This document shows positions 1 to 20,808 of a stretch of DNA of 37,614 bases, piece after piece (position 1 is the stretch's first letter; each line of letters starts with the position of its first letter). The DNA comes from a virus. Location of the stretch: the IMG/VR virus record IMGVR_UViG_3300045988_158900; one strand, given 5' to 3'. The notes beneath the pieces are model-generated. The model did no database searches and was not told the DNA's origin. It saw nothing but the letters and a program-made list of their open reading frames with translations. Both the position numbers and the translations under genes were made by a program.

Positions 1-325
1 AAGCCAATTTTACAAATGCTTGCTATCCCGTTACTCCCGCATCTAATAAATTTTTAGATAATTTAGTTACATCTGTCTAAGCTCTATTTAAACTTGCATT
101 AAGTTTACTTAAATCATAATTGCCAGTAGCTGTATTATAAGCTTCATTTAAATGAAATGCTAACTATCTGGCCGCCTCAGAAGCTTTTTGCATCTATTCT
201 GGTTTAAGCCCTAAATCAGTACTATATGAAAGTTTAGTTAATAATTGTTGTAATTCTTGAATAGACTATTTTGCTTGAGTAGTATTTGCAGTAAAATCTA
301 ATGCAACATTTAATTGTTTTGCCAT
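1..325 (-). CDS. Structural protein, N-terminal portion only (gene runs off the window start). Possibly the tail tape-measure protein. TAG-recoded.
   Basis: ATG at 325-323 on the minus strand follows a GGAG RBS. The frame stays open to position 1 only if about 5 in-frame TAG codons are read as sense. The product is Q/A/L/N-rich and repetitive, and sits where a tape-measure gene is expected after the tail genes. Confidence 0.4.
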
Positions 326-354
326 AAACGGGACTCCTTTCTCTCATAATATAA

Positions 355-393
355 ACAAAAAAAATGGGTGTGAGAAATAATCTTCTCACACCC
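355..393 (-). terminator. Intrinsic terminator of the upstream minus-strand gene
   Basis: Hairpin GGGTGTGAGAA..TTCTCACACCC at 366-393, followed on the minus strand by a T-run (plus-strand A-run 355-364). Confidence 0.6.
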
Positions 394-440
394 ATACACT
401 TGATTATTCCTATTTAATTTTAAAAAATTAAATAGTTTAA

Positions 441-965
441 TTATCCCAACTTGGTCAAAACATCTTTTAGTAATCCTAATGTTTCAGGATTCTGAATATC
501 ATTAGTTAATTGTTCCATATCAAATGTTGTATCTTTATAATCGGTTGAAATAATATCTAAAATACCTGCTGCAGAATTTTTATACTCATAAATTGAATGA
601 ATAGTTTCTGCTACCCAACTTTTAATTTGAGCATATTCTCCTGGATTAATTTCTCCAAATACTTTAGCGGAAAAACCAGACCCTACTACCAAATCATATA
701 ATTTCTTTGGGTCTTCTTTTTGCTTGTCAGTAAAACTTACATTTGTATATGCCATAATCATTTTTAAAATCGTATGAAGATATACACGAGCAGGATTATA
801 ATAACCATTTTTATCAATAGAATCATTAATAATTTCTGAAATAAGATTTAACTTATCTCCAATAGGAAGATAATCCTTGACCTCAATAATCTAATCTTCC
901 CATTCAAAAGTTGATACTTCTGTATTTTTACTTAAATTTAACTTTGAAAATGCTACTTTTGCCAT
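441..965 (-). CDS. Hypothetical tail-region protein, 174 aa, with 1 in-frame TAG
   Basis: RBS AAGGAGGG lies 6 nt before ATG at 965. The track ORF 441..761 extends upstream in the same frame through a single TAG. Stop is TAA at 441. Confidence 0.55.
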
Positions 966-1008
966 TTCAAAACCCTCCTTTTACACTTATTTATATTATA
1001 CTAAAAAT

Positions 1009-2043
1009 TTAGTTTATTGTCAAGTTGCCTTTTGAATTATAATAAACCCCAACTGTTGATATTTTTGAAGAAATAGACTCATTTGAATTTTTCATCATAA
1101 CTTCAATAATTTTTTTCGTACTTCTAACAATTACTTTTTCTTTCTCTCTATTATTAATAATTAAAAATTTTGGAACTTCTGTCATGCCTACAATTCCGCT
1201 AGAATTAACTTGTAAATCACCTGCACCCACTAAAGCATTAATTTTTATCATATGCGTTAAATGAATTAAAAAAATATTTTCCTAATCTTTTTCTAAATAA
1301 TATTTATACATATGAATAATTCCTTTGGGAGTGTATCGTTTATCCCGATTAGTTAAATATTGCACCATACTAGCATAAGCCTATACTGGAATAACATTTC
1401 CTAAATGAACTGGGAATTTATAATAATTTTTCGCTGTAAATGAAGCAGATAATATTTTAACTATTTTACTATTTATTTCTCCTTCTAAATTTATAGACAT
1501 AGTTAAATTATTCCAATTAACATCCGTTTTTAACTACTTAGGTACTGTTGGTTTCATTGTATCCTCTACTGCTGATTTATATATTTTATTTTTAGAAAAA
1601 CGAATTTTTTTATCAGTATTTTTATAAAAATTTTTAACTAATTCATCAGGAAGAGCAACTATTCGCTAATCCTACCCTGTAATTGTTTGATTTTGAAATA
1701 ATGTTAAATCATTTATACTATTTGGGTCCACTATCATCTAACCTACAATATCTATCAAATTCTCTAATAATACTCCTGTTTCATTCTAATTTTTACCCGA
1801 TAAAGAAGATAAGTCTCCTAAAAAGGGAAAACGTTTCTATAACTAAGACTATAAAAATAATCTACTTTCTTCATTAAAAAATTCTAATAATACTTGTGTA
1901 AAAATATTATCAGTATTTATTTTTTCTTTTTTATCATAAATTAAATAATTAAATAAATCTTCTAACGCTTCAGCAATTTTTTCATCTTCTGTTGAATTTG
2001 AAAATTTATTTAAAATTGTATTATGCAATGTATTAATATCCAT
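1009..2043 (-). CDS. Hypothetical tail protein (assembly/chaperone region), about 344 aa, with about 12 in-frame TAG
   Basis: Track ORFs 1849..2043 and 1009..1251 are in the same frame (coordinate mod 3 = 1). Hand translation of 1252-1848 shows no TAA or TGA, only TAG. RBS AGGAGAAG precedes ATG at 2043. Stop is TAA at 1009. Confidence 0.5.
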
Positions 2044-2061
2044 TTAGAATTTCTTCTCCTA

Positions 2062-2100
2062 AAATAAAAAAAATGGGAAGAGGAATAAATCCTCTCCCCA
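2062..2100 (-). terminator. Intrinsic terminator after the major-tail-protein gene
   Basis: Minus-strand hairpin GGGGAGAGGATTTATTCCTCTTCCC followed by a T8 run. Confidence 0.6.
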
Positions 2101-2118
2101 TAAAAATTTTTAATTAAA

Positions 2119-3195
2119 TTACCAATTATAACTATCATGAGATTTCTGGTGAACTGTACTATGACGATGTAAATCCTCATTATCCAAATACTCAATTACT
2201 TGAATTGCAGCCAAAACTTTCTTACTATGATCGAAACGAGTATAATCAGGGAATGCATCTAAGGTGAAAGTAAATGTACTTGGGTCACCAGAAGAAGCCA
2301 TAGTAAAGGTGAAGTTGGACTGAATCTTGCAGTTAGGAATAATGAACTCAGCAGGCATGTCTACACCGTTAGTATCACGGAATAGAGTAGAAGCCTCAAG
2401 ATAATAATTACCACCAAACTTATCAGCAGTAATTTCCATTTGAGTAGCACCAGACTTGCGCTCAGTGTAGTAATCAACTAATACAGAATCGAACTTTAAG
2501 CGATCTGGTAGAGTAACTACATCATAAGCAGTATCGCCGCTTTCACTTTCATATTTATGTCCTTTATTCTGCTCATCCTCATAAGAAGCCAAACCAACAT
2601 ACATTTTATGATCCATAACAGCTACACGATAATAAGTCTTACCATCTACATCAATTACAGTTTCGGGCATAGCCTCACTATCAATAGCAGTATCATCACC
2701 CTCATGAACAGGAATGTAAGGTTCAGTAGTGATTTCGCCATTCTTCATAAACATTACATAAGCGAAGTTATCACCAGCATTAGCAGGTAGATAAGGCTTA
2801 TTTTCAGTATAAACAGCAAATTTAAATCCAGTAGCATCAAATCTGAAACGTAAAGAATCGCTTGCATCAACAGTTTCAGTTACATGTTGATAAATTGGCT
2901 TATCCTTATTAGCAGCAATTAAACCAGCGCCAGAAAGAATCATAAATCCTTCAGGAGAAATTAAAGCATCCTCCATAGTAAAGGTTAGAGTTCTTTCACC
3001 TTCCCATGCTACCAAACGAGAGTTACCACGACCACCTTGTGCATATACAGTGGTAGCAGCACCTTCTAAGCTAGAAGTTTTTAGGGTGTCAAAATAAATA
3101 ACAGGTTCACCAGCATAGAATACCTTATTACCGATTTTCTGGGCTGACTTAGCCTTTAGTACAACATCACAAATTTCGCGGACACCGAATTTCAT
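2119..3195 (-). CDS. Major tail (tube) protein candidate, 358 aa, with no internal TAG
   Basis: Complete ORF in the track. Strong RBS AAGGAGGAAATAACACT-ATG. It lies between the neck genes and the tail-assembly genes and is followed by a terminator, consistent with a highly expressed tail tube gene. Assignment is by position and size only. Confidence 0.4.
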   Translation of the reverse strand: MKFGVREICDVVLKAKSAQKIGNKVFYAGEPVIYFDTLKTSSLEGAATTVYAQGGRGNSRLVAWEGERTLTFTMEDALISPEGFMILSGAGLIAANKDKPIYQHVTETVDASDSLRFRFDATGFKFAVYTENKPYLPANAGDNFAYVMFMKNGEITTEPYIPVHEGDDTAIDSEAMPETVIDVDGKTYYRVAVMDHKMYVGLASYEDEQNKGHKYESESGDTAYDVVTLPDRLKFDSVLVDYYTERKSGATQMEITADKFGGNYYLEASTLFRDTNGVDMPAEFIIPNCKIQSNFTFTMASSGDPSTFTFTLDAFPDYTRFDHSKKVLAAIQVIEYLDNEDLHRHSTVHQKSHDSYNW

Positions 3196-3222
3196 AGTGT
3201 TATTTCCTCCTTGTATTTTTAA

Positions 3223-3951
3223 TTAATGAATGTTTTTCATCCAATTATCCGGGGTCCCTTCAGGTTTACCGCCAGCTAAACGCTAGCGCACATCCAGGTC
3301 CCAAGCAGTATATAGCGTATATCTCTCCATTAAATCATATAATTGGAACATTGTCAGATTTGTCAAATCCTATAATGACATTGAACCTAATCCAATAGTC
3401 AAGATTGACATATACTAACTAAAAACACTTACATTCGAATTACCGTTTTGAGCGGCAACTCGCTGTCTCCCTCGCATTAGCTTTTGAGCAATCTCACGAG
3501 CCTTATCGTTGGCAGGATTGAAAGCCTACTAATCCATCGGGCCATTATGCATACAAAAGATTAAACGCAACACTTCTTGTAATGCTTCAAAATTATTTCC
3601 ATCTACAATAATAGGAGGAACACCTTCCTTTATAAATAATAATGAGTTTGGTGTCACATTTATTTTATATAATGGAAATAATAAATTTAAAACATTTAAA
3701 ATGTTAGCTTTTTTATCCTTTGTTTCATCCTATAACATTATCGTCATAAATATCTAAAAATTATTGATACTGTCTAGAATAGTTTTGTCCTCTATAAACA
3801 TTGTTTTATGCAAACAGAGGGTCTATGCTCCAATAAAAAAATCAGATTCCCCAATAAATGAAATTTCTTTTATCCTTGGTTGATGAGCGACTAAATTACA
3901 TTCAGGAATCAACATATCAGTTCCGCAAATTAAATTTAAGCGGTAATCCAT
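3223..3951 (-). CDS. Head-tail joining/neck region protein, about 242 aa, with about 8 in-frame TAG (including a TAG-TAG pair)
   Basis: Hand translation from the ATG overlapping the upstream TAA (TAATGG at 3951) down to TAA at 3223 is protein-like only with TAG read as sense. Confidence 0.4.
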
Positions 3952-4553
3952 TATTTACTAATATAGTCCTTAAATTCTTTAATAAATTGTTCCTCTTTAA
4001 TTTTGCCGCTATTTTTATCAGGATAAGTTGGCATATATTTTTCATCTTCACCGCCATGAACAGTGCGATACATCAAACATAACCCAGCAAATTCATCGGT
4101 TAAAACAATCTAAGTAGCACCCATAAATTCCAAATAACCAATGCCAGTTAATTTTTTCAAATTAAACATTGAATCAATTTCTCCAGCAATTTTATATGGG
4201 CGTAATGCATAATCTCTTAAATTCCATTGGTCAAAATGACATACAATATGAAATTGAATAGTGTTATCTCTAAACTCTGGATTTTCACTGGGAGTAAAAT
4301 TATCAAAATTAATTAATATATAATTTAAAACAGAACCATCAACATATAATTTAGGCACTATTTTAATATTAGTTCCTAGTAAACTTAAAGACTAATCTTC
4401 AGTAAGATTAGGCTTTTCCATAGCATCACTAGTAGTATAATATAATAATTTTTTTAAACGATTATTTTTTAATATTTCATTAACAATAATCCCAGTATCT
4501 TTCTCCATAGATAGAAAACTTGATTTTGGAATATGATATCCATCTATTCTCAT
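3951..4553 (-). CDS. Hypothetical neck/tail-terminator region protein, 200 aa, with 2 in-frame TAG
   Basis: RBS AAAAGGAG precedes ATG at 4553. Track ORF 4110..4358 is an internal fragment in the same frame. Stop is TAA at 3951. Confidence 0.5.
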
Positions 4554-4575
4554 GTTTTCAATCTCCTTTTACTCA

Positions 4576-5730
4576 TTAGAACAATGATTCTACTACTATA
4601 GTTTTTCGGCTAGTCCCATATACTAAATCAAACTAACCACTATAAGTAGAGTCCCATTTAAGTTTAATTGTTGAAAATCCTTTATCATTAGTCCCTTCAC
4701 TAATAATTCGAACAGGGACATCATTGCCTTCAATTTTCCAAGTTCCTCGAACATTTTTAATATTTAAATTAAAATCATATTCTTTTTTAGGCTTAATAAA
4801 GGTTTCACCAACTATATTTAAAATTTTATTATTATCTTTGTTATTATCTATAATTTTACGTTTTAATATTGGATCTGGTATTTTAAATACATCAGCTAAT
4901 CCTGTATCTCGGTCATCTGTAAATTCATTAGCATAATATTCAACAGCGTTTACTTCAATAACGCCAGTCATACTAATATTATTTACAGCTTCAACTCTCC
5001 AACAGGTATCATAAACTGAACCATCTTCCGGCCAAATATAAAACTTCTAATAACGTTTAAAAAATTTCAAAGTTTTTTCATTTTTAGGAATTAATAAATT
5101 TAAAGAATAATTTGGATTATCTATACTAATAGTATGTTTTTGAATATAATCAATTTTAGTTTCTACTGGACCTCGGTTAGCCACATAAACTACATTTAAT
5201 TCATCATCCATCATAAATGGAATTTGATAAGTACATCTACGAACGTCTCCACGGAAATAAGCTAATTCATCTAAATCCTATAGATAAATTAACCAATAAG
5301 TTCCAGTATTACACCATTCAAATACATCTCCACAATTAAATTTATGTTCAAATCCAATTGAAATAACTTTATCATCATAATCCTATTTTAATTTATTAGG
5401 ATTCATTAATGCTCGAACAGGAGGTAAAATATTTTTTTCTTTTTTAGTTTCTACCTCTGTAGCCGCACATTTACGCACCCAAGCTGCCTAATAAGAATAT
5501 TTAGTAGCTTGGTCTAACGAATGTCGTTTATCTTTGATCATTCGCTACTGTTGGGCAAAACCACCCGCACTCATTAATCTTTTGGCCATATCTAAACTAC
5601 CATCAACTGAATCTGGCTAAGGAATTTTTATACTTGTATCACCTAAACGGGCCCCTACGAGATTTACACTTTTATTAGTATTTAAACCATAAGGCAATAA
5701 TTTTTCCATTTTTTCTGGACGCTTTGGCAT
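4576..5730 (-). CDS. Hypothetical structural protein, about 384 aa, with about 8 in-frame TAG
   Basis: ATG at 5730 overlaps the upstream TAA by 1 nt. Track ORF 4633..4971 is an internal fragment in the same frame. Stop is TAA at 4576. Confidence 0.5.
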
Positions 5731-5990
5731 TACTTTTTAATCTCCTATAATAAACTAATGCATTCGAATACAGTTTTTCTATAAATTGAAAACTCAATAT
5801 CATTTAAAACATTTAGTCCTTCTAATTTACTAAGCAACTATAAAAATCGCGGGTCCTAAATAAAAATTTCATTTAAGCCCGCAATTTCAATAATAACTGT
5901 ATTTAATTGTTTATCCCAATCTTCTTCATTTTCTCTCATAGGGATTAATTTCCACAGTTGATTAGTTAGTCTTACTATATTTTTCTCCAT
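5730..5990 (-). CDS. Small head-tail connector-like protein, 86 aa, with 3 in-frame TAG
   Basis: ATG at 5990. Continuous protein-like translation down to TAA at 5730 if TAG is read as sense. Confidence 0.4.
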
Positions 5991-6018
5991 GACTTCATCA
6001 GAAATATCTGTATGGTAT

Positions 6019-6606
6019 TTAGTTATCATAAGGATAATTCTTATAATGAAATACGCCCCAATTGGATTCGTATTTCCCTTCTACTAATTTACGACGTTTA
6101 TATAAACGTTGCATATGAAATGATTGTCTCTAACATTCACTTAATAAAGACATCAATTTTTGTAAATGATTAGCCTATGAAGTCATTTTAAAATCTGAAC
6201 CACTATATTTCATACGAGTGTGTTCAATAGAAGTGACTTGGCGTTGTACCCAATTCACCATCATCAATATAGCTAAAATATTAATTTCCTCCGGTGTTAA
6301 TTCAGCTCCAAAAGATGAATGTTCTACCATTACACGAGGAGGGCGGATTTCTGATTCTTCATCTTTTTCATCTTCCCACAAAAGACCAATTACAAAATCA
6401 TCTTCTAATATTTCATTTTCATATTTAATTTCCTAATCAATAGTATAGTCATAAATATCAAATCTAGGAAATTCAAATTCAGGTAAAATATTTAGAAGTA
6501 TTGCACGTAAATCTTTAATTGTATCTTCTGGAGTTAATTCAATATAAAGGTCATCAGTAATTTTCCCAAGGAAGCGATTATAAATATCAGTGAATTTAGT
6601 TCCCAT
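6019..6606 (-). CDS. Hypothetical acidic protein, 195 aa, with 4 in-frame TAG
   Basis: RBS GGAGG precedes ATG at 6606. Track ORF 6175..6381 is an internal fragment in the same frame. Stop is TAA at 6019. Confidence 0.5.
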
Positions 6607-6627
6607 GATACGCCTCCTATTTATTTA

Positions 6628-7215
6628 TTATTCAGCAGATTTAGTTTCAGTTTGCTTTACTACTTTGTAAGCATTTTCAGATGTACGACGTCCTGCGGGA
6701 GCAGATTCTGTAACACGTCTTTTAGCTGGTTTATCTGCGATAGTTTCCTTTTTATCATCTTCTTTACTAGCGCGGTCATTTTCAATAGCCTTATCTACGT
6801 CAAAACCAGTTTTAGCTTTTAGAGCTTCACGCTTAGCCATATCAGTAATGGGTAATTGAACAGACATAGTTTTAATCAAATCAATAACTCCAATAGGAGC
6901 AAAATCAAGAGCATCTAAAAATGCATCAATAGAACCACTAAGAATTAAATCACGCACTTGCTCTTCTGACATATTATATTCAGGCTCACGATGGACATTT
7001 AAATCATCAGTAACTTCATTTTCCATAATCTGTAAGAAATTAGCAATTAACTCACGACCGCCAGGTTGGTAAGTCAATTTTTCTAGCTCCCCAAATGGAA
7101 TGCGCTTCACCTCACCGGGCGCCCATTCGCGTCTCAAATTACTCTCAGGAATTCTATATACAACAACACTAGTACTTCTATTTTTTACATTAAACATATC
7201 TTCAGAACGAATCAT
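6628..7215 (-). CDS. Hypothetical head-associated protein, 195 aa
   Basis: Complete track ORF. RBS AAAGGAGATAATAA-ATG. It lies directly downstream of the capsid gene. Confidence 0.55.
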   Translation of the reverse strand: MIRSEDMFNVKNRSTSVVVYRIPESNLRREWAPGEVKRIPFGELEKLTYQPGGRELIANFLQIMENEVTDDLNVHREPEYNMSEEQVRDLILSGSIDAFLDALDFAPIGVIDLIKTMSVQLPITDMAKREALKAKTGFDVDKAIENDRASKEDDKKETIADKPAKRRVTESAPAGRRTSENAYKVVKQTETKSAE

Positions 7216-7236
7216 TTTATTATCTCCTTTTTCTCT

Positions 7237-7275
7237 AAAAAAAATAAGGGGAGAGGGAGTAAATCCCTTCTCCCC
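7237..7275 (-). terminator. Intrinsic terminator after the capsid gene
   Basis: Minus-strand hairpin GGGGAGAAGGGATTTACTCCCTCTCCCC followed by a T8 run. Confidence 0.6.
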
Positions 7276-7303
7276 TTAAATGAAATCTATATTAAGGTTT
7301 AAA

Positions 7304-8410
7304 TCAAATTTGTCCACTTAGACGTCCATCATAGGTAACAACCTTACCAGTTACACCATCATAGTTCCAAGTATACATCTGACCCATTAATGAAGTATCA
7401 ACATAAGAGCAAATGTTGTTAGCCAACATACAACCAACGCCGACCTTCTTATAAACCTGAATCTCACGAGAACGATCGTAATTGTTGAATTCATCAACAA
7501 TAGTTCCACCCTCGAAAGCAATCTTTACAGGCTTGCCATCAACACCAGTAGGAATAATCCAAGCGTAGCCAGGATCAATAACCTTACGAGTATTACTTTC
7601 ATCTTCGAAGCCCTGCTCTAAAATAACAACCTTGGTTCCCTTATAGGTAGCCAAACGGCCAGTATTCCACAACTCAGTCTTCATAGCTTCAGTATAACGC
7701 CAAGCTTCATTAGGAATCATACGAACAGCAAATTCATAAGTACAATAAATAGTAGGAGTACCATAAGCAGAAGCAATAGTAATCAAACGATCCATAGCAC
7801 CTTCATCAAAACCTGCTGCAGCAACACGGTTAGCAGGAGGTAGCTGATTGATAGAAGACTTCAAAGCCAAAGCAACTTCCTTGTAAATCAGTTCATCCAT
7901 ACCATCCATAATAATCTTGATAACTTCAGCAAAATCAACACGACCATCTAAGAACTCTTCGAAGCCGATTTGAGCAGCTCCACCGATAGCAGAGGTACGA
8001 ACCTCGAAGCTCTCGCTCTCAGCAGGTCCCAGCTTGAAGACTTCATAGATACCAGCCAGTCCAACACGAGTCACAAACTGCTTAGCACGTGCGCGTGTAT
8101 TCAGAGGACGACGGAAAATGGGCTTATCACCCTGAGCAAACTGCTTAACTTCAGCAAACTGCTCATAAGATTGAGAAACCTTCTTAGGAAGAACTTCATC
8201 CAAAGTCTCCTCAATCATTGAGAAAATTAAATTTTTATTTTCACGATATAGAGCATTAGTACCAGCTAGCTCATTCATCTCATTACGTAAAGTATCGTTC
8301 AAAGCCTCATAAGAAAGGTTCTGACCATTATAACTGTAAGCCACAGGAGAAGAAGGAACAGCCTTAGCAACAGTCTTCATTAAAGCAACTAAATTGTTTC
8401 TATCTAACAT
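7304..8410 (-). CDS. Major capsid protein candidate, 368 aa
   Basis: Complete track ORF with RBS GAAAGGAGAGAAGAATA-ATG. Size, position after the scaffold/decoration genes and the following strong terminator fit a major capsid protein. No motif-level proof. Confidence 0.45.
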   Translation of the reverse strand: MLDRNNLVALMKTVAKAVPSSPVAYSYNGQNLSYEALNDTLRNEMNELAGTNALYRENKNLIFSMIEETLDEVLPKKVSQSYEQFAEVKQFAQGDKPIFRRPLNTRARAKQFVTRVGLAGIYEVFKLGPAESESFEVRTSAIGGAAQIGFEEFLDGRVDFAEVIKIIMDGMDELIYKEVALALKSSINQLPPANRVAAAGFDEGAMDRLITIASAYGTPTIYCTYEFAVRMIPNEAWRYTEAMKTELWNTGRLATYKGTKVVILEQGFEDESNTRKVIDPGYAWIIPTGVDGKPVKIAFEGGTIVDEFNNYDRSREIQVYKKVGVGCMLANNICSYVDTSLMGQMYTWNYDGVTGKVVTYDGRLSGQI

Positions 8411-8427
8411 TATTCTTCTCTCCTTTC

Positions 8428-9363
8428 TTACGCAATACGTAGAATCTTAGCGCCACGTTGTCCATCAGGCATAGTATATACCTTAACAACCTGCCACTTC
8501 ATATCCTGACTCTCATCTTTTACAAGAATTCCGTCAGCAGCTGCTGGAGCTAAAATATCACCAACAGAAACACTATCTTCATTAATCATATTAGTAGTAT
8601 AATGATCACCAACATTAGTCTTGAAGACACGAGGAACCATTGCAGTACCTGGAGTCATGCGCTTCTCATGATAAACACCAAGCTTCTTATATGGATCATT
8701 AGTCCAAGTCAGCTCTTCGTAAATGTCAGCAACATCAGTTAGAACTTTATCATAAGCATACTTTACAGGCACAGGAGTCTTAGTCTGATTGGTCTTAGGA
8801 TCAATCTCATACTCTACACCATTATAAGTAAACTTATTGTCCTTAACATCATAAACTTCGCCAGCGATGGTAACAGTCTTTAGACCCTGGTCTAAGGCAA
8901 CAGTGTGCTCAAGCACCTTGTGATCAGCACCAGTTTCATCAACACCATTCCAGAAACGTCCACCATATTCAACCTCAGTATGCTCCCAATCATATGGAGA
9001 ATAAATACGAGCCTGATAGTCGTCCTTTAGCATAGCAAATTCGCAATCCCACTGCTTAGTTCCATCAGGATGATCACGATATAACTTAATCTCATTATAA
9101 ACTAGCATCCACTCACCCTTGCCAGTAAAATTCACTTCACCAATACCATTGGCATTAGCAGCATAATCATACTTGACAAACTGGCCGTTTTCAAGAATAT
9201 TAATATCCTTGTTAGCAGGCAACTGAGCATAAATTTGAGCGGTTCTTTGTGCAGACAGGTGATTTGGCTCAACCTGACCATAACCAAACTCAACATACTT
9301 AGCCTGTGACTTAGGTGGATTTTTACCAACGCCTAAATGAGAATTTAAAAAATCCTTAAACAT
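8428..9363 (-). CDS. Capsid-associated structural protein (decoration protein or alternative capsid candidate), 311 aa
   Basis: Complete track ORF with RBS AAGGAGGACATACTTAA-ATG, immediately downstream of the scaffold-like gene. Confidence 0.35.
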   Translation of the reverse strand: MFKDFLNSHLGVGKNPPKSQAKYVEFGYGQVEPNHLSAQRTAQIYAQLPANKDINILENGQFVKYDYAANANGIGEVNFTGKGEWMLVYNEIKLYRDHPDGTKQWDCEFAMLKDDYQARIYSPYDWEHTEVEYGGRFWNGVDETGADHKVLEHTVALDQGLKTVTIAGEVYDVKDNKFTYNGVEYEIDPKTNQTKTPVPVKYAYDKVLTDVADIYEELTWTNDPYKKLGVYHEKRMTPGTAMVPRVFKTNVGDHYTTNMINEDSVSVGDILAPAAADGILVKDESQDMKWQVVKVYTMPDGQRGAKILRIA

Positions 9364-9381
9364 TTAAGTATGTCCTCCTTA

Positions 9382-10971
9382 TTAGTTTTTATTGGCTGAT
9401 TCTAGAACAGCCTTGACCCAAGCTGGCATCCCAGCATCTCTGTCATCATCTAAATTGCTTAAATTATAGGTAGTTGGGCCTTTATCATTATTATCATCAT
9501 CAAGGTTAAAATTAACCTTGTTGCGAACACAAATAACAGAAAGCTTTGCTTCAATATCATCAACAGAATACTTATCAATGTTATCAATAACATCTTTCTT
9601 ATCATCATCAGACAGCATATAGAATGATTGAATCATAGCTTCTTTATCCTTACGTTCAATACTATTTTTAAACTCAGTTAAAGAAGTATTAGTTTCACTT
9701 AGAGTCTTATTTTCCGCCTCTAGCAAACTAAATTTATTCTGCAACTCTTCATACTCTGCCTTTAAGCTAACATATTCTTCAATTTCATCCAAGGAATACT
9801 TTTTCTTTTTCTTTTCATCCTTATCATCTTTTGAAGGATCGTCATCTTCATTTTCTGACTTTTGACCATTATTTTTAGAAGAACCATCATCTTTTTTGTT
9901 CTCAGGGTCGCCAAAATTATCGCCCTTATCATCGTTTGACTTTTTATTTTCTTCTTCTTCTTGCTTTTTCTTAAATTTGGTTTCATATGCTTCAACCGCA
10001 TCTAAAGCAAACTGAGGCTCTGCTGCTGGAGTATAAGATTTAGTCACTTCAATTAAACCTTCACCAGGAACAAGACCATCAGAATCACTCAAAGAGAAGT
10101 TTAAACGATAATATTTCATATCTCCGCGGTCTTGAAGAATAGCAAATTTTTGACTATTATCTTCAAAAACACCATCAATACGATATTTAGAGCAATAATT
10201 GTTAGAGCCATCAGGGAAAGCTTTATTTACATATTCCCATAAAGCACTCCATAGAGAATCTCCGATTTCTACGGCATATCTATTAAACACTTTTGCTCCT
10301 CCTTCTTTTAATAATTCTTTTAGTTCATTCATCATTGAGTATAGTTCATTTTTAAAACTATCATCAAATGAAAGAGAAAACTTTGTAATAGAGGAGCCTT
10401 CGAAGCAAGGTTCACACTCTTCTCCTAAAATACAAAGTTTAGAAATAATTGCTTCATTAATAATGAAAAACTACGGCTTTCCATTATTATCTTTCGTCCA
10501 AGTTCCATCTAAAGTGCCTTCATCGAGCTCCATAGAATGATTATTGCCTTGCTCAATGATGCGCTTACATTCTGGATATTGGCCGGTCCATAAATATCCT
10601 TCAGTCATAAGATATTCATGTTCATTAACGCCATCATCTAAAAATTTCTAAAACCAAACCTTGGCACCTAAATCTACAAAACCGTAAGGTTTAGTAGTGT
10701 CTTTCATTTCAAACTTTCCGTTTGAAATATCAATAATTCTATTGTGTTCCTCAAAATCTCCATTAGATTCATTGTAAAAACCAACAATAGGACTGCCAGG
10801 GAGACTATTAGCCATCTCCCTTGCAGTTTCTTTAGAAATAATGCTTCGATTGCGATTTGGTTCATCCCCAACGTAGCAAACTTTAATTTGGCATTTAGAA
10901 ATCAAAGGATTAATAGGAGTTACATTAATAAATTCACAAGGCGTTTCAAGTTTAATACTTTGATGCTTCAT
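9382..10971 (-). CDS. Prohead protease/scaffold-like fusion protein, about 529 aa, with 2 in-frame TAG
   Basis: Track ORFs 10648..10971 and 9382..10335 share a frame. Hand translation of 10336-10647 shows only TAG codons (at 10648 and 10471) and no TAA or TGA. The C-terminal 200 aa is a K/E/D-rich coiled-coil typical of scaffold proteins. The N-terminal domain is possibly a protease; this is a weak call. Confidence 0.45.
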
Positions 10972-11093
10972 GATTTACCTCCTTAATTCATTGACTCTTT
11001 ATTTTTTATGGTTTTTTCACTTTTCTAATCATCAGCCTTTTCAGGTCGCCCAGACTATTTTGTTTCAGTAGTCTGTTTTGTAGTAGTCTATTG

Positions 11094-12644
11094 ATTACTA
11101 CTTCCTGAATTATTTTGTGTTTTATTCTAATTGTTTGAACCTTTATTACCCAAAACATCTTGACTACTCATAGTAGAAGACATTAATGGTGGGATCATAA
11201 TTTCAGTTAATTTCAACACATCATTTTCAAATACCGCAGTATTTAAAATAAAACTCTAAGAGTGACCAAGAGCAATTTGAGGTAGCATCTTAGAATAACC
11301 AAGTTGCGTCTGTTCTTTATATAATTTTGACATTTCTTTATAATTATATTGTGTAGTTTCAAGCATATAAAATTTAAAACTATATTTCTTATTGTTCGCA
11401 ACTTTCATCTTTACTATTCTATCAAAAAAAATGTTAAATTGCAACAACAAGTTTCTAACAGTTGATTCATCATTAAGAATAGACTTCTCTAATGATAAAT
11501 TACCATCAGTATTAAATAGATTTTGAGAAATGCCTAAATTATTATAAACAGTACGTTCAACTTTTGCTAAATCATCTGTAGTAGTTGTAGTATTTTTATC
11601 TGATAAATCAATAGATTGAACATCAGTAAATGTTGTTAAAACATCAACACCAATAGCTCTTGATAACATAGCAACAGCATTATTATGTATGTCACGAGAT
11701 TCATCAATATCAAATATTAAATCGCCATTTTTATCCATCGGAAGTTTTTGAACAATAATTTTTAACAACTTCTACATTTGTTTTCTGCGGTCTAAATCTT
11801 GAGCAGCATCTAAATCCATAAGAGCAGGGATAGAATTAATAAATGGTGGGGCATCACTACCATTAAAATTAAATTTCACACTTAATTCTGGAGATAGTAA
11901 ATACCAACTTCCACTATAATCTCCCTTAATATCAGGAAGTAATTTTCCTTTCTTATATAAAATATATCCGCGCTAAAATTCTTCGGGGAATAATTTTAAT
12001 ACGCGCATACGATAATTAGGATCTGGAAACTAATCAAAAAACCGCATATCAAACTCAATTGCTGGCATACCAGCCACAAAGTATCTAGAACGGCAATAAC
12101 TAGCAGGTAATTCTTGTAACATTAAGCTATTTGCAGATTGTACTATATATCCATAATAACAACCATTTTTCATAATACTTTGAGCAATATCACCGCAGAT
12201 TTTTTTAATATAAGTATTATCTAAATAATTTAATAATTTTGAAAAATCTTTTAAAACTTTTTCATCTTTTACTGTATCGTCTAAAATCTCTGGAGCAACA
12301 TACCAATCATATCTATACAAATAAGCAAAATAATTACATACTCGCTCATAAATACCGCTAATATCATAAAATAAATTAGAAATTCTACGCATTTCAACAA
12401 TATCACGATTTATCATAGCTCGTAATACATCATTTTTAGTGACCATGCGACATGGTCCACGACGATTAGGATATAGCCGAGCAAATGACCCTAAATCTAA
12501 TACAGCATCATCTAATGTTTGAACCCCAACTTTTATTTTACGATATTCTGTTGGATCAGCAGTTCGATAATCACTTGTTCCATTGCTGATATTAAATCCT
12601 TTGGAGTGGATGATTTCCTAACGTGATAATTCTTTAGTATCCAA
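11094..12644 (-). CDS. Portal protein candidate, about 516 aa, with at least 3 in-frame TAG and a TTG start
   Basis: RBS AAGGAGGTGGAATT-TTG at 12644. Track ORFs 12030..12446 and 11256..11768 are in-frame fragments. The frame continues through TAG codons to TAA at 11094. Position between terminase and scaffold. Confidence 0.45.
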
Positions 12645-12656
12645 AATTCCACCTCC

Positions 12657-13013
12657 TTAATATCCAGCTAATTGCATTATATAATCATATGTAATAAGAT
12701 TTTCATCTGTATAAGGAATCTCTATTAATTTAAAATCGTGTAAAGCACAAAAACGTCGTTTTTGATTATCATTATATTGTTGTTGATATAAACCTTTTTT
12801 ACCACCAAATTTCGCGCTAGGCTCATAGTGCTATTTACCCTAATATTCAATAATAAAATCAATTCTACCATCATCATCAAAAACGACAAAATCGAAACGT
12901 AAGGGTCTGCCACTTGGTGCCTTCAAATCTGGGAAAATATACTCCATCTTAAACGGTAATTCAGCTTGTCGCAAAATCTCTTCAATTTTAATTTCGCCTC
13001 TAGACGCTCTCAT
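12657..13013 (-). CDS. Small PD-(D/E)xK endonuclease (DUF559/Vsr-like), 118 aa, with 2 in-frame TAG
   Basis: Translation MRASRGEIKIEEILRQAELPFKMEYIFPDLKAPSGRPLRFDFVVFDDDGRIDFIIEYQGKQHY... carries the RFDF..(8-10)..IEYxGxQHY signature of DUF559/Vsr-type endonucleases. It is inserted between terminase and portal like a free-standing homing-type nuclease. Confidence 0.5.
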
Positions 13014-13023
13014 AATTACCTCC

Positions 13024-14757
13024 TCAATTCAAGAAACACCAATCTTTAGCATTAAACTTTTTACGTTTCTTCTTTTTATCTTCTTCTAATTTTAAATAAT
13101 ATAGTCCATATTCAAAAGCAGAAAATTTATCTTTTCGGATACTTTTATTTGCTTGCTTCAGGATAATATTTACTCCTTCAGTTTCTTCACGCAAATTCAT
13201 CATTTCTTCTTTTAATATGGAAGTTAATGTAAATGGTTTTAATTCTTCTGCCCTCTATTCTGGAGTCATAGTTTGACCTTTCTTTTTAGCAAGAAGTTTA
13301 TTTTTTGCTACGCGTTCATCAATTAAAAATTTTACTTTTCCAGAAGCAAGTTGTGATTTAGCAATCGCATGGGCCTCTGTATTAAGCGGCGCATTAGCTT
13401 TTATAATATACATAGCATCTAATACTGTATTAGATGTTTTATATTTTTTATAAAATAAATCATCATCATTAACAACACCAAAATCAGGGAAAATTTCATT
13501 AGTTTCAGGATCAATCTATGTCTTAACCATATAATCAATTAAACCAATTCCCAAACCATTACCATCAATTACAATTCTATCAGCGTTATATTTATAATAT
13601 AATTTTTTTAATTTAATAGTTTGGTCTTCAAAGTGTTCATCAGATAATGTATATATATTCACTAGACTTTTAATCGAGCCACCTTGTGATTGTGGAGTTA
13701 CTTTAAATATACAAATAACTGAATCGCATCCTTTACGACCAACGTCGACAGCAAGTACATAAGATGCTAATTTTGAATTACGCCCAGACGCTTCATATTC
13801 AGGCTAATTTAATATTCTATTTCTGTCAAATATTTCAGCATTAAAAAATGCATCTTCTACAGTGCCAGACCATTTACTTTCATACTCTCGGTCAAATGAA
13901 CTTTCATTGAACGTTCCATCCATTTTTAAGTCTTTAATAAAATTCGCATCTAATAATTTCATTAAAACAGGAATACGATAAGTACCACCCATAATAATAG
14001 ATTGCTAAGGTTTAACAATCTCCCAAACTAATAATTGGATTAATTTATCATAGGGGAAAGTATTTTTATATCCAGCAGTAGTAATATAAATTTGAGATTT
14101 ATTAAGAGTTTCATCAGGTTGAGTAGTACCATCCATACACATACGAGAAATATTCATTGTAGGAATAATAACTTGTGATAAAATATCACCATCAACACCA
14201 ACGCACTCTTCAATTAAACCACCATGGCGACGTTTACCACGAGAAGACTCTCTTGCGGCAATATTATCAAAATATGAACCATTTTTAAATACATATTTAA
14301 CATAATCTTTGCCTTCAAGTGTCTAACCACGGTGCCAATCTATTTCTTTCTAAAATGCAGGAATAAGAGTACAAATTTCTTGAACTTTTTCTTTTACAAT
14401 TCCAGCCGCTTGCTCTTTACCACCAGAAGTAATAAATAATTTACATCTAGGATATAGAATCGCACGACACATTAAGACCATTATTGATAAAAAAGATTTT
14501 GAATAAGCACGAGGGAATACAGCATAAATATATTTATGACGCATCGCAGCGCGCAAAAAAATTCTCTAATAAAAATAGAGTTTAAAATGTTGAGGGCCAC
14601 CATCAGGTCCTGCCATAAAGTCGATAAACATATCTGGATATTCTCTCCAAAAGGCTATGTACTATCTTGCTTCTGGTATAATCGCACGAAGACGGTCCTC
14701 TGAAATTCCAATCTTTTTACGCTTCTAAGATAAATCAAGTAAATCCTATAAAGCCAT
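13024..14757 (-). CDS. terL: Terminase large subunit, about 577 aa, with about 10 in-frame TAG
   Basis: ATG at 14757 follows the upstream stop. Track fragments 14350..14556 and 13804..13992 are in the same frame. Hand translation shows a P-loop-like segment (YAVFPRAYSKSF) and RNaseH-like nuclease acidic segments (VLAVDVGRKGCD, IVIDGNGLGIG). The 3-prime end (TGA near 13024) is uncertain by a few nt. Confidence 0.75.
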
Positions 14758-14758
14758 A

Positions 14759-15955
14759 TTATCCTTCTAAATTCCTTAAAGTCTGAGCATCTATTTCAGA
14801 CTCTTCCTCAAGGAAATCATTATATTCAATTAAATCTTCATCTTTAAGATGATCGATTTCTTCCATCGTTAAATCTTCTTCAATATCTTGGTCTTCTTCT
14901 TTATTTTCTTCTTCTTGCATTTTCTTAATAGCCCCTTCAATGAGATTACCTAGATTCATCTCTTCGGTGACTAATGTATGTGTATAGTTCTTTAAATCTT
15001 GTAGAGTTTCGTCAACTTTATCTTTTGGACCTTCTGTATAATACCGAGGAATAAATCCTTCAGTCTCACACATGGCCACTAATTCTCCAATAGAATCAAA
15101 TGCTTCTCCTGTATCTGCTTTATTTTGAGCGGCGGTGAAATTACCTGATTTCATTAGACTATCATAAACCTTGCTCATCTTTTGGAAACCTTCGATATCA
15201 CCAATATCGATCAACTAGTTTGCTTTTAAGGATGTCTTACAAATTAATTTTAATGTATCAATATGACCAGCGCCGCGGATATCATAAGAACTCATCATTT
15301 CTTCATAGAGTTGCTCTAGTTTAACCCATTCTTCGGGTTTATATGCTTTACCCCACTTCATACGAAGATATAAAATATCTTCTTCTGTTAAATCGAGGCC
15401 ATCTGCTGGGTCATGCTCAATACCATTCTATTGATCAAAATAATCATCACCATCTCTAAAACGTTCAGGCAATTCAGGAGTATAAGGTTTTAATTCTTCT
15501 TCTGGAATAGCGACAGTAGATTTAGCAATAGCTGTTGCTATTTGCTAAGCATCATATCCTTGACGTTTCATAGTTTGCTCTAATTTATTATTAGCCACTT
15601 CCTATAAAAACTCAGAATCTTTCCATCGATAATCTTTATATTGTTTAAGTTTCATTTTGGACAAATATCTACCTAAAATACTCATACCAGTTAATTTAGA
15701 TTTATCTTGTCCATATTTTACCATTAATTTACTCCACTCATCTGGAACATAAGGTACATCAATTTCTTGTAGAATCCACATATAAGTTTCTGGATTCCAG
15801 TTATCTACAAGCATTGTAATACATTTTTTACATTGAGGGAGTTTTCCATCATTTGGATATTTTTCTAAGTTATTAGATGTATAAAACTGGTCAGCGCCCA
15901 TAGTTCTATTACATCGTTCACAATAATATACTTTTTTATCATTATCTACAGTCAT
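14759..15955 (-). CDS. Zinc-ribbon plus acidic C-terminal protein, 398 aa, with 4 in-frame TAG (terminase small subunit or DNA-packaging accessory candidate)
   Basis: Track ORFs 15602..15955 (CxxC...CxxC) and 14759..15214 (acidic) share a frame and are joined by a TAG-only stretch. RBS AGGAGGAAAATT-ATG. It lies immediately upstream of terL. Confidence 0.45.
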
Positions 15956-15997
15956 AATTTTCCTCCTTATATCTATCCAATAACAGGCATCTCAAAA

Positions 15998-17062
15998 TTA
16001 TAACTGTTTGCCCTTGTTTTTGGCATTGCGGCATTTTTTACAAATACTGTAATAACCATCTTTGCTGGTTTTATTTTTGCTAAAATATTTATTATGTGCT
16101 AATTTAATTTGCCCACAACGGCTACATTTTTTATATTTACCTTTTGCTTTATGTAAATAATAATCATATAGGTATTGGTCTTCAGCCGCAGAGGCGATTA
16201 GTTTTGGAATTTTATTACGCCATAAACTAGAAATATATTCTAAACTATGAGTAATATTAAATTCCTTTTGAATTTTCTTTTGAATGTCTATATTCTATAA
16301 TCCATCAATTTTATATTCAACTATTCTATCATATAAGGGATAATCTTTAAGAGCAATGGTACATAAATTATCGAAATCTTCCATAATATACCATAAATCT
16401 CTTTCAAAATCTCCCCAACTATCTTGCTTTAAACGAGAATAATTACATAAAATTGCAGAACATACTCTAGGGTCTAATAGTGAAACGCCATCCGGGATTG
16501 GATAACCATCATCATCAAAAATGCAAGTCGTGTCCTCTAATGGAATAAAATTTCTTGAACGAGTAATTTTAGTCATAACAATTGGACGACGAACTGCATT
16601 TTTAATAACATACTAATCTTTACGCATTTCAATAATAGCACGTTTAATTATAAATGCCTCGCGTCCTTCGCTAACTCGTAATTTGGCTTCCCAAGTAGTA
16701 ATGGCGTCTCTTAACTATTTTAAATGAGGTATTTCTTCTATATCTTTTTTAGTAATTGTAATTTTAGGCTAAAATATTGTATTTTTATTTTCAGTAATTA
16801 AATTATAAATTCCATCTTCGCCATTCTCAAATTGGGAAACAAGACCTTCAAAAGATGTTTCACGTTTATTAACTGTTGCCATACGATTATCAGTTAATAA
16901 TTTACGCTCCTTTTTCTCTTGTTTCTCCATACAAAGAATGATATAGTCCCCTAATATTTCTAAATATCGAGGAGAGGGGTCTGGGGTTTCCTCTAATATT
17001 TTCTTGACTAATTCATTTCTTTCTTCTGGAGTTTGTAAGGAATAGTCTAATTTTATCATCAT
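15998..17062 (-). CDS. First gene of the late operon, 354 aa with a C-terminal CxxC..CxxC zinc ribbon, about 4 in-frame TAG
   Basis: Track ORFs 16769..17062 and 16295..16576 share a frame. The TAG-only linker was translated by hand. Stop is TAA at 15998. Function unknown (regulator or packaging candidate). Confidence 0.45.
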
Positions 17063-17629: not shown

Positions 17630-17820
17630 TTGTTATCTTTTGGATAATCATTTCAGCATTAGTAATGTTTGAATATATTGATGCAATTCAAAGCGCCGGT
17701 GAAAATAAATTAATTGTTTGTTTAATATTTTTTATTGGTGGCCCAATATTCGCTGCGAGTGATTTATTACAAAGAATTTTAGATATATTTTTACCAGAAG
17801 GGTGGAATGGTGATGACTGA
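17614..17820 (+). CDS. Small two-TM membrane protein, 68 aa (holin-like topology, TTG start)
   Basis: Track ORF with two hydrophobic segments and a charged C-terminus. Overlaps the upstream gene end. The function call rests on topology only. Confidence 0.4.
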   Translation: MGAYVIVIFWIIISALVMFEYIDAIQSAGENKLIVCLIFFIGGPIFAASDLLQRILDIFLPEGWNGDD

Positions 17821-17839
17821 AAAATAGATTAAATATATT

Positions 17840-18139
17840 TTGAAAAATTTTAAACGAGGCACTACTATTCTATTTATGGGTGTATCATTTAATCAATATA
17901 TTAATCTTGAACAATTAACTGAAGCAGGATATACTTGTATCCTATTAGGTGAAGGCCAAGATTATTGGCCATATATTCAAGATAATATGATTATTTATGT
18001 GGATAATATTGATATTAAAATTATGCGATTAAATTGTTATCCATTACATTGTCCAATTTTTGTATATGATAAAAATCGAGTAATGAATGCAGAAAATAGA
18101 GACGTGCGCGTTTGGGCAGAAGTGTTAAAAGAGGAGTAA
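17840..18139 (+). CDS. Hypothetical protein, 99 aa
   Basis: Complete track ORF in the standard code, with RBS AAACGAGG. Confidence 0.5.
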   Translation: MKNFKRGTTILFMGVSFNQYINLEQLTEAGYTCILLGEGQDYWPYIQDNMIIYVDNIDIKIMRLNCYPLHCPIFVYDKNRVMNAENRDVRVWAEVLKEE

Positions 18140-18438: not shown

Positions 18439-18756
18439 ATGGAAGATGGAAAAAATTATTTTGATATTGTAATGCGAGAAGGCCAAGCGATAGTTCATAA
18501 TGAGGGTTCTATTCATTAGGTTGATAGTTTAGGCCGCCTTGTTTTTCCTAAAAATTTAAGACAAAAATATGGTATTGCTCCTGGTGACCGCATGGAATTT
18601 TATACTATTGAATATAATGATGAAGTTTATGTTGGAGTGCGAGTGAGTAAACGATATGGTAGTAGAATAGAGTATTTACGCGCTAAAGAGGTATTAGATG
18701 ATTTAGGAATCGAAATTCCTCAAAAACTAACTGATGCTATTAATGGAGTAATGTAA
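18439..18756 (+). CDS. AbrB/MazE/SpoVT-family (swapped-hairpin) transcriptional regulator, 105 aa, with one in-frame TAG at 18517-18519
   Basis: After the TAG the frame reads VDSLGRLVFPKNLRQKYGIAPGDRMEFYTIEYNDE, which matches the AbrB N-domain core (VDELGRVVIPIELRRTLGI..D.LEIY). The TAG lies inside the domain N-terminus, 26 codons after the ATG. No alternative in-frame start exists downstream of it. Confidence 0.6.
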
Positions 18757-19474: not shown

Positions 19475-20266
19475 ATTGTTAAAAATTTAACGATGTAGCA
19501 AGATTGTTAAAAGATTAACAATGTAGCGAGATTGTTAAATTTTTAACAATCACTCAACCAAGAGAGGACAAGGACACACACGGCATAGTGGACAAGGAGA
19601 GCGAGCCAATGAGCGAGCGACCAACAGACAAAGAGAACAACACACAACACAACACAATGATAGATACATTGTTAATGTATTAACAATGTAGTATAGTAGT
19701 ATGGTATGGTAGTAGATGGGGCAGGGGTGGGCTATGGGTAGTGGGTAGGGAGAGAGAGTAGACCGACAATAAGAGATGCGGACGCGCTTCCCACCGGTCG
19801 GCTCACCGGGAACCGCGCACCACAAATCTAATGTAGGTATTCTATTTCTCTTTTGAGTTCATCATCGTTAACGGCCCTAATCGCCCAAGAATAAGCCCTC
19901 GCACAATTGCCAAACAATACAGCGGCGCAGGCGCTGAACAGCGCGCATCCCGCAACACACAGTCCTCACAGAGGGGCGAGCAAGATTGTTAAAAATTTAA
20001 CAATGTGAGAGCCAAGAGCAAGAGAGTAAGGAGTGCGCTTGCACAGGTAGCAAGGAGGACACGCACGGCACTGTTGATACATTCGCTGACCGAGCAAGAT
20101 TGTTAAAAAATTCACAATGTGTGGATGTAGTGAATGTGCTGTTTAATTGTTAAAAATTTCACATTCGCTGTTGGATGCCGAACACGGTCGCCGCGCTCCT
20201 AACTTCACCACGTTAAAGTGATAAAGAAAAAAAATCGCAAATCCGATTGTTAAAATAATCACAATC
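19475..20266. promoter_or_regulatory. Array of 8 palindromic operator-like sites, consensus ATTGTTAAA-N2-TTTAACAAT, with a ninth copy at 21108-21126
   Basis: Sites at 19475-19494, 19503-19522, 19530-19551 (perfect 10-bp arms), 19666-19689 (ACATTGTTAAT-GT-ATTAACAATGT), 19985-20004, 20099-20118, 20145-20165 and 20246-20266. Several are preceded by GAGCAAG. The whole 19453-20290 region is non-coding. Confidence 0.7.
19718..19750 (+). other. G-quadruplex-forming motif within a C-depleted G/T/A tract
   Basis: Six runs of G3-4 within 33 nt (ATGGGGCAGGGGTGGGCTATGGGTAGTGGGTAGGG). The flanking 19685-19761 stretch has only 2 C. The preceding 19555-19657 stretch has only about 4 T. Confidence 0.5.
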
Positions 20267-20306
20267 TCTGTCCCGAAAATAAATAGGTTATTTTTGAAAA
20301 AACCTC

Positions 20307-20335
20307 TTGACAAATTGCCCTATGTGTGCTACAAT
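20307..20335 (+). promoter_or_regulatory. Consensus promoter (TTGACA-N17-TGcTACAAT)
   Basis: Exact TTGACA at 20307, 17-nt spacer, extended -10. Confidence 0.6.
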
Positions 20336-20365
20336 GATTACAGTAAAACAAAGGAGGACGATACA

Positions 20366-20602: not shown

Positions 20603-20615
20603 GGAGGAAATGACT

Positions 20616-20804: not shown

Positions 20805-20808
20805 CATA

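Follow-up and report, generated by a model that had tools for sequence, protein, structure and literature searches.

The window analysed here comprises the 37,614 nucleotides of IMG/VR record IMGVR_UViG_3300045988_158900, and represents one end of the genome of a tailed mammalian gut phage of approximately 197 kb, whose virion module is related to those of SPbeta, EF1 and phAss-1. Its left part (1-17062) is a minus-strand operon of packaging, head and tail genes, termed late below, in which the codon TAG occurs repeatedly in frame; the reading of this codon is the subject of the analysis. G+C content (GC) was ~30% between 1 and 19 kb, ~46% between 19 and 35 kb, and low again to the end of the window. 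When only TAA and TGA were treated as stops, the minus strand between 1 and 17077 resolved into 18 genes in near gap-free tiling:

2-325, minus strand: g01, tape-measure gene, 5' part, running past the start of the window; 5 TAG
441-965, minus strand: g02, 174 aa, 1 TAG, ending in TAA; phrog_30570
1009-2043, minus strand: g03, 344 aa, 10 TAG, ending in TAA; without a family match
2101-2073, minus strand: strong intrinsic terminator after g04
2119-3195, minus strand: g04, tail tube (YomU-like), 358 aa, no TAG; precomputed PF27173 YomU_Tube, phrog_2729
3223-3951, minus strand: g05, YomV-like, 242 aa, 8 TAG
3951-4553, minus strand: g06, YomW-like virion protein, 200 aa, 2 TAG
4576-5730, minus strand: g07, 384 aa, 7 TAG
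5730-6029, minus strand: g08, 99 aa, 3 TAG
6019-6606, minus strand: g09, 195 aa, 3 TAG
6628-7215, minus strand: g10, 195 aa, no TAG, GC 0.37; TAG-free also in the recoded relative L005
7304-8410, minus strand: g11, major capsid candidate (YonB family), 368 aa, no TAG, GC 0.41; precomputed PF27364 YonB, phrog_4088
8428-9363, minus strand: g12, 311 aa, no TAG, GC 0.40
9382-10971, minus strand: g13, YonD-like, 529 aa, 2 TAG
10983-12644, minus strand: g14, portal, 553 aa from TTG 12644, 9 TAG; phrog_2739 (2e-81, residues 74-551), tblastn matches to phage portals
12657-13013, minus strand: g15, HNH/homing-endonuclease-like gene between portal and terminase, 118 aa, 2 TAG; phrog_9084, phrog_559
13024-14757, minus strand: g16, terminase large subunit (TerL), 577 aa, 10 TAG, ending in TGA
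14759-15955, minus strand: g17, YonG-like, 398 aa, 4 TAG
15998-17062, minus strand: g18, first gene of the operon, 354 aa, 4 TAG, C-terminal zinc ribbon; phrog_5767 ('sigma factor'), 2e-53

In the standard code the minus strand of this operon yielded only short open reading frame (ORF) fragments. Across the 18 genes (5,507 codons) there were 70 TAG codons in frame and not one TAA or TGA, while the other two frames of the same genes contained 563 TAA, 497 TGA and 216 TAG; an asymmetry of this size cannot arise through chance or decay. The 17 complete genes terminated in TAA (15 genes) or TGA (2 genes), and AGGAGG-like Shine-Dalgarno (SD) sites preceded all late genes. Reading TGA or TAA as sense between 1 and 17 kb was also tried and did not repair the ORFs. 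The window was compared with strains from other samples, which gave a pN/pS of ~0.06 at a synonymous divergence of ~0.18, every TAG-containing gene included; of 54 window TAGs in shared genes, 51-52 were kept in independent human and pig assemblies.

The original prediction, made from the window alone, had stated that the operon is legible only with TAG as a sense codon, that its genes truly end in TAA or TGA behind strong SD sites, and that a standard-code ORF track fragments them; all of this was borne out. Its finer counts fared less evenly. Rather than at least 15 consecutive genes with TAG, 14 of 18 were found, interrupted by g04 and g10-g12, which are free of TAG and readable in the standard code. 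The counts given for the terminase (about 10; 10 found) and the portal (at least 3; 9 found, or 8 from the later start) held, whereas the 344-aa gene has 10 TAGs and not about 12, and the 384-aa gene 7 and not about 8. TAG density was put too high at 2-3.5% of codons, the measured value being 1.27% over all 18 genes, 1.6% over those with TAG, and 0.4-3.3% in individual complete genes; a frequency like that of glutamine (3.8-4.1% of codons) was reached only when TAG was summed with CAA and CAG. The reported scarcity of TAG as a terminator elsewhere in the window was correct, with the count amended from 1 of about 34 genes to none of ~37 convincing ones.

The products obtained with translation table 15 matched PHROG portal, terminase, virion-protein and homing-endonuclease families across the TAG positions, and identical products on public contigs fell into the YonG_N, YonD_N, YonB, YomW, YomV, YomU_Tube and PhageMin_Tail families. 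The full tape-measure product, on a 157-kb contig, was at least 2,784 aa long and belonged to PF10145 (PhageMin_Tail); the portal has an alternative start at ATG 12446, giving 487 aa and 8 TAGs. No late protein was matched by a copy of Pfam-A predating the Yon and Yom families, and NCBIfam produced only sub-threshold matches for the late proteins, the HK97-fold match of g11 being weak (E = 0.004, below the curated threshold). Sequence searches of PDB with the capsid, terminase and tube gave no match, so the HK97 fold of g11 stays a candidate. Of the profile hidden Markov model matches that had been anticipated, those to portal and terminase were obtained from PHROG, but an HK97 capsid was not recovered at curated thresholds.

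TerL had 1,625 homologs among cluster representatives, and near-identical copies were common to hundreds of public human and pig gut contigs (P0049 on 705; 854 contig-index blocks). Within PHROG, the protein was split over two families of 'unknown function', phrog_15503 (residues 10-216) and phrog_24618 (residues 351-577), and many of its 50%-identity cluster representatives were fragments starting at recurring internal positions. Both PHROGs look like products of recoded terminases that standard-code translation had cut into fragments.

The public protein P0001 is the exact table-15 translation of the window TerL. This reflects a pipeline assumption only, so the assignment of TAG was tested independently. 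TerL has TAG at residues 4, 11, 32, 64, 136, 145, 251, 318, 414 and 501. In an alignment with 50 full-length TerL representatives, TAG64 stood opposite glutamine in 49 of 50, and the frequency of glutamine was 0.18 in TAG columns and 0.25 in CAA/CAG columns, compared with 0.027 elsewhere. The codon for Gln64 was examined in 17 relatives; five genomes, this strain group among them, had TAG, eight had CAA (EF1 and Sundance being two of these), and phAss-1 had CAG. Where the relative with a 66%-identical TerL was aligned, window TAGs lay opposite TAG (15) or CAA (12), and its own TAGs lay opposite window CAA (15) or TAG (15), with the same substitution profile as CAA. Among strains, TAG was polymorphic with CAG and CAA. 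A Codetta-style likelihood over all 15-17 late genes identified glutamine as the best residue, with a lead of 21 log units when EF1 and Sundance, both cultured and of standard code, were the only references, and of 88 with five references pooled. Finally, the glutamine codons of TAG-containing genes comprised 94 CAA, 65 TAG and 10 CAG, while CAG was the predominant glutamine codon in TAG-free late genes and in early genes; TAG has effectively taken the place of CAG. The comparison of in-frame TAGs with glutamine in homologs, proposed as a check by the original prediction, was therefore favourable on three counts (likelihood, Gln64 and codon interchange), and these comparisons assign TAG to glutamine in the late genes.

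A search for a tRNA with the anticodon CUA, tRNA(CUA), had also been proposed as a check, and one was found in the genome of the same phage outside the window. It was seen in other assemblies, in which the late proteins are ~95-99% identical, and was reached by walking rightward along a 197.6-197.7-kb IMG/VR genome: beyond the window this walk crossed a standard-code block of ~40% GC, then a very AT-rich recoded block, and then an array of 28 tRNAs (L032 5520-19097 and L053 10745-12152; ~106.5-126.3 kb in IMGVR_UViG_3300045988_140174). The tRNA(CUA), ~47 kb past the right end of the window, was present with essentially identical sequence in five of five assemblies examined. It scored 55 bits with the Rfam tRNA model, and the CCA end was encoded in most copies. 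A perfect TTGACA-17-TATAAT promoter, one of only two perfect sites in its 16-kb region, lay 84 nt upstream (L032 17518-17546). The array tRNAs covered 19 amino acids, and glutamine alone had no ordinary tRNA; within the array the CUA tRNA fills the slot that a tRNA-Gln would have. In D-arm and G73 discriminator it is similar to the tRNA-Gln genes of related phages, and its cloverleaf is ordinary, its anticodon stem measuring 5 bp and its acceptor and D stems being separated by two bases, as judged by the criteria that tell the pylT architecture apart from an ordinary cloverleaf. It would probably be charged with glutamine by a host enzyme and outcompete host release factor 1.

Other members of the array are unusual in themselves, namely tRNA-Ile(UAU) and tRNA-Phe(AAA). 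No HDV-like (theta) ribozyme was found near tRNA(CUA). In the relative with a 66%-identical TerL, a tRNA-Cys was located inside the early block beside the late operon (L003/L004 5041-5114), and tRNA placement therefore varies between close lineages.

The remainder of the window differed from the late operon in composition, promoters and the use of TAG. The principal features were:

17116-17088, minus strand: perfect TTGACA-17-TATAAT promoter heading the recoded operon, upstream of g18
1023-995, minus strand: perfect consensus promoter upstream of g02
17807-18139, plus strand: low-GC gene beside the operon, one in-frame TAG
18439-18756, plus strand: low-GC AbrB/MazE-like gene beside the operon, one in-frame TAG
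20287-35123, plus strand: standard-code early block of ~30 small SD-led genes, GC 42-54%, G+C at third codon positions (GC3) 0.62, dense in sigma-70 promoters
36414-36932, minus strand: low-GC gene at the right end, two in-frame TAGs
37013-37213, minus strand: low-GC gene at the right end, one in-frame TAG

Between 17 and 36 kb there were 25 perfect consensus sigma-70 promoters and 95 promoter-like sites, compared with 38 +/- 6 in shuffles. The late operon showed no enrichment (87 sites, 89 +/- 10 expected), and its only perfect promoters were the two listed above; strong terminators followed the tube gene g04 and g02. The block between 19 and 35 kb looks like an early region transcribed by host RNA polymerase. 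TAG occurred in this block neither in frame nor as a stop, and GC3 fell from 0.62 in early genes to 0.28 in TAG-free and 0.20 in TAG-containing late genes. A recoded structural operon beside a promoter-dense block without TAG is the code-15-like pattern, with recoded late genes, that had been proposed.

Taken together, these observations very probably describe a gut phage of ~197 kb in which AT-rich genes use TAG as glutamine through a phage tRNA(CUA), and early genes use the standard code; the difference between them may serve as a timer. The AT-rich genes, including the whole packaging, head and tail operon, are read with table 15 and stop at TAA and TGA only. The phage tRNA(CUA), which has its own host-type consensus promoter, would decode TAG as glutamine. 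The GC-rich early genes, with their many consensus sigma-70 promoters, contain no TAG; they avoid the codon, so an unmodified host would read them correctly. TAG genes would then give no full-length protein until the suppressor had accumulated, and the sigma-like g18, which combines a host-type promoter with four TAGs, would be subject to the same timer. This two-block pattern fits a published model in which early genes are written in the host code and recoded genes await the suppressor.

Several observations weigh against this interpretation. The window itself contains no tRNA or other known RNA, according to ARAGORN and Rfam. The identity of tRNA(CUA) to other tRNAs is uninformative, its isotype is not provable from sequence, and it carries a U1-U72 mismatch where U1-A72 is the norm. 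Neither a class-I release factor (GGQ motif) nor an aminoacyl-tRNA synthetase was found in the ~110 kb examined of ~197 kb, and the search for a release factor suggested by the original prediction was to that extent negative. Lysine scored slightly above glutamine when TAG was compared with Sundance alone, where identity is low and the alignments are noisy. The evidence for glutamine at TAG in this phage comes from sequences, and the timing is deduced from promoter and codon patterns alone. The 5' bias of TAG within genes is at most weak (Kolmogorov-Smirnov p = 0.048 against CAA/CAG) and does not differ from uniform.

The codon usage of the two gene classes was compared with the tRNA array. 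The codons read by phage U34 tRNAs, tRNA-Arg(ACG) and the CUA suppressor were favoured in late genes relative to early ones in 14 of 14 informative cases; the only exceptions were the C34 tRNAs Leu-CAA and Glu-CTC, which ran in the opposite direction. It is conceivable, although we regard it as doubtful, that the phage maintains two full translation regimes, the early one suited to the host tRNA pool and the late one to the 28 tRNAs of the phage (among which the suppressor would be the sole Gln-type tRNA), with suppressor supply as the master timer of both late transcription and late translation.

A serious alternative, albeit an improbable one, is that the recoding is real and has no regulatory role: once a suppressor was present, AT-biased drift would have converted CAG to TAG in AT-rich genes under weak constraint, and the contrast between early and late genes would be a by-product of GC content. 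TAG use does follow gene GC almost perfectly. Over a further 66 kb of the genome, none of the 32 genes with GC >= 0.40 contained TAG, compared with 16 of 21 with GC < 0.35, and 18 of 68 genes in this stretch were recoded (about a quarter to a third). Genes in which TAG is frequent have almost no CAG, TAG positions fall mostly in variable, surface-type columns, and the 5' bias noted above is weak. The number of TAGs in TerL varies from 0 to 16 among relatives 66-88% identical, which suggests that the codon is readily acquired and lost, and low GC was proposed as a precursor of recoding by Borges et al. (10.1101/2021.08.26.457843). However, in the TAG-containing genes G-ending codons made up ~18-19% of lysine and glutamate codons, whereas TAG and CAG together made up 44% of glutamine codons; TAG use therefore exceeds what composition predicts. 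Also against drift, the invariant Gln64 in the catalytic region of TerL is TAG in five lineages. Drift also does not account readily for g18, where the first gene of the operon has a host-type promoter and four TAGs, or for a sign of selection on TAG use, namely that three diverged recoded lineages keep TAG out of their most abundant virion proteins. In the window these TAG-free genes are g04 and g10-g12 (2119-3195 and 6628-9363; GC 0.37-0.41), which use CAG; their counterparts are TAG-free in the diverged recoded relative L005, and genes of the capsid region lack TAG in phAss-1. The pattern suggests that TAG is selected against in the virion proteins with the highest expression, and that suppression has a cost.

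It is very unlikely that TAG encodes another amino acid, such as lysine, glutamate or pyrrolysine. ARAGORN labelled tRNA(CUA) as 'Pyl', which is its default for CUA, and lysine was the commonest residue at several variable TAG columns of TerL, besides its first rank against Sundance alone; but the lead of glutamine by 88 log units pooled and 21 with cultured standard-code phages, the TAG, CAA or CAG codons at Gln64 across genomes, the interchange of these codons in strains, the ordinary cloverleaf and an array without tRNA-Gln only all point to glutamine. Pyrrolysine decoding in particular was rejected because there was no pylT-type tRNA architecture and the residues opposite TAG indicated glutamine; no genome-wide search for pyl genes was made.

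A chimeric window, in which the GC-rich block at 19-35 kb came from another genome and the contrast of codes was an artefact, is extremely unlikely. The abrupt rise in GC from 30% to 46% at ~19 kb and its return at ~35 kb could be taken in that sense, as could the failure of the 19-35 kb block to match any phage record by megablast. Yet the same junctions were present in independent contigs from different samples (L002, L006-L012), the 197.6-197.7-kb IMG/VR genomes span both sides, GC-rich standard-code and AT-rich recoded blocks alternate elsewhere in the same genome, and SD sites and promoter style are uniform throughout. Lastly, the view that the TAG genes are pseudogenes of a defective element, the decay contemplated in the original prediction, or that the TAGs are sequencing or assembly errors, is refuted: although the genes are fragmented in the standard code, there are 0 in-frame TAA/TGA against 1,060 in the other two frames and near-identical TerL on hundreds of contigs, and the low pN/pS and the conservation of TAGs therefore exclude both.

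Among described phages, phAss-1 is the closest relative (portal 40% and TerL ~45% identical); it is filed in the NCBI 'Caudoviricetes code 15 clade'. In phAss-1, TAG encodes glutamine in the terminase, portal, tape measure and other virion genes, three tRNA-Sup(CUA) genes belong to a large tRNA set, no dedicated synthetase was found, and a Eubacteriales/Clostridia host is suspected; its monophyletic group includes recoded and non-recoded members, among them the standard-code Enterococcus phage EF1 (Babkin et al. 2023, PMC10607447). The two phages share homologous, syntenic packaging and head genes, TAG as glutamine and a suppressor tRNA within a large set. They differ in genome size (~197 kb here, 136 kb in phAss-1), in the number of suppressor tRNAs (one here in the ~66 kb scanned around the tRNA array, three there), in the ordinary tRNA-Gln genes present there and lacking from the array here, and in the positions of TAG, which are almost entirely different. 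Membership of Phassvirus (phAss-1, BK046881 and BK025033; ~80% or more nucleotide identity plus synteny) was considered, and a megablast of 19 kb gave no phAss-1 match; the window is not Phassvirus because it is without a nucleotide-level match to phAss-1. From the homology of terminase, portal and capsid and the conserved gene order, it would belong at most to a wider phAss-1/EF1/SPbeta-like group.

The order of virion genes is shared with EF1, Brevibacillus phage Sundance and the Bacillus prophage SPbeta, at 25-50% protein identity: YonG-like, terminase YonF, portal, YonD-like, capsid YonB, YomW, YomV, tube YomU and tape measure. Unlike the window, these three use the standard code, and none of their homologs has an in-frame TAG. 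MT836163, at ~57% identity, likewise had no TAG in 13 homologous genes.

Large TAG- or TGA-recoded clades infecting Firmicutes, with scattered recoded structural modules, suppressor tRNAs and low GC, were described by Borges et al., whose clades comprise crAss-like, Lak, Jade, Sapphire, Agate, Garnet, Amethyst and Topaz phages (10.1101/2021.08.26.457843). The present phage resembles them in its standard-code early genes, scattered recoded structural modules, low GC, depletion of TAG as a stop and suppressor tRNA, and equally in its close standard-code relatives and rapidly changing code. Its size and partial recoding recall the large Firmicutes-associated clades, which were compared by description only; it differs in having no release factor in the parts examined (~110 kb), and no lysis gene, the class for which a recoding bias is reported in those clades, was identified. 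Code 15 has been demonstrated at the protein level, by proteomics, in crAss-like phages (Peters et al. 2022, PMC9523058), and genomes that use two codes in separate blocks are reported in the Mgcod preprint (10.1101/2022.06.29.495998); shared with the present genome are the change of TAG to glutamine and the block-wise use of two codes. The crAss-like phages are otherwise an unrelated lineage (Crassvirales, with Bacteroidota hosts and weak SD sites), in contrast to the strong SD sites and Bacillota-style promoters seen here.

The host is probably a member of the Clostridia/Bacillota. Relatives were binned with metagenome-assembled genomes of Eubacteriales, Lachnospiraceae, Clostridium, Acutalibacteraceae and Erysipelotrichaceae; such binning is weak but consistent evidence, and agrees with the strong SD sites and extended -10 promoters.

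Other features of the genome were observed besides these. Two selfish-looking genes contain TAG: the endonuclease-like g15 in the window, and a low-GC putative endonuclease gene of 309 aa with 6 TAGs outside it (L018 6975-7904). The latter sits in an otherwise standard-code, GC-richer block; both recall the recoded intron endonuclease of Borges et al. At 19497-20279, where the low-GC divergent genes (one of them the AbrB/MazE-like gene) meet the early block, there were five copies of a palindrome resembling an operator (AGCAAGATTGTTAAAA..TTTAACAAT). Within the early block a composite repeat occurred six times (21964-22174, 23006-23213, 26701-26864, 29155-29337, 30785-30967 and 32085-32267), with a partial copy at 33777-33920. 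It consists in order of an intrinsic terminator, a consensus plus promoter, a GC-rich 9-bp hairpin, a back-facing consensus minus promoter and a second plus promoter, and four pairs of the hairpin showed compensatory changes among the seven copies. The -10 boxes of all six face-to-face promoter pairs are 38-40 nt apart, so polymerase footprints must overlap; these pairs may act as a switch through promoter interference, or may give rise to short antisense RNAs.

Duplication was evident elsewhere in the early block. Three consecutive genes of ~76 aa at 23843-24561 were tandem paralogs (MEFIEPPIYVK..., MEVIKPPIYVK... and MNIITSNVQVQ...), and a two-gene cassette was duplicated (29924-30355 and 30407-30763; 32389-32919 and 32978-33376). 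Gene content in this block varied between strains (loci L006-L009). At 35659-35810 there was a 19-bp tandem repeat (ACTCCCATCATTTTCTTTC) in ~7 copies, which is non-coding because its period is no multiple of 3; an independent 35-kb contig (L011) ends within it, and the repeat resembles iterons or, at the least, marks an assembly breakpoint. At 36449-36628 a tandem duplication of 90 bp (98% identical) overlapped the 3' part of the TAG gene 36414-36932. The right end of the window (37614) is the exact start of the 194,444-bp contig XIEH16-1_SAMEA3449300_METAG-scaffold_63 (L010). As other assemblies run on past this position, it marks where an assembly stops and need not be the end of the genome.

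The mechanism described here is already known from gut phages, and this is a further independent, well-resolved and abundant case and no new mechanism; the current picture of phage recoding is unchanged by it. What is most unusual is the split in codon usage, the suppressor that replaces tRNA-Gln in the array, and the six face-to-face promoter pairs with their conserved hairpin. In practical terms, the phage is abundant in human and pig guts, and pipelines that assume the standard code break up its terminase, portal, tail and tape-measure genes. In TerL, only 12-35% separates relatives with the standard code from heavily recoded ones, so this lineage may provide a model for the gain and loss of codon reassignment.

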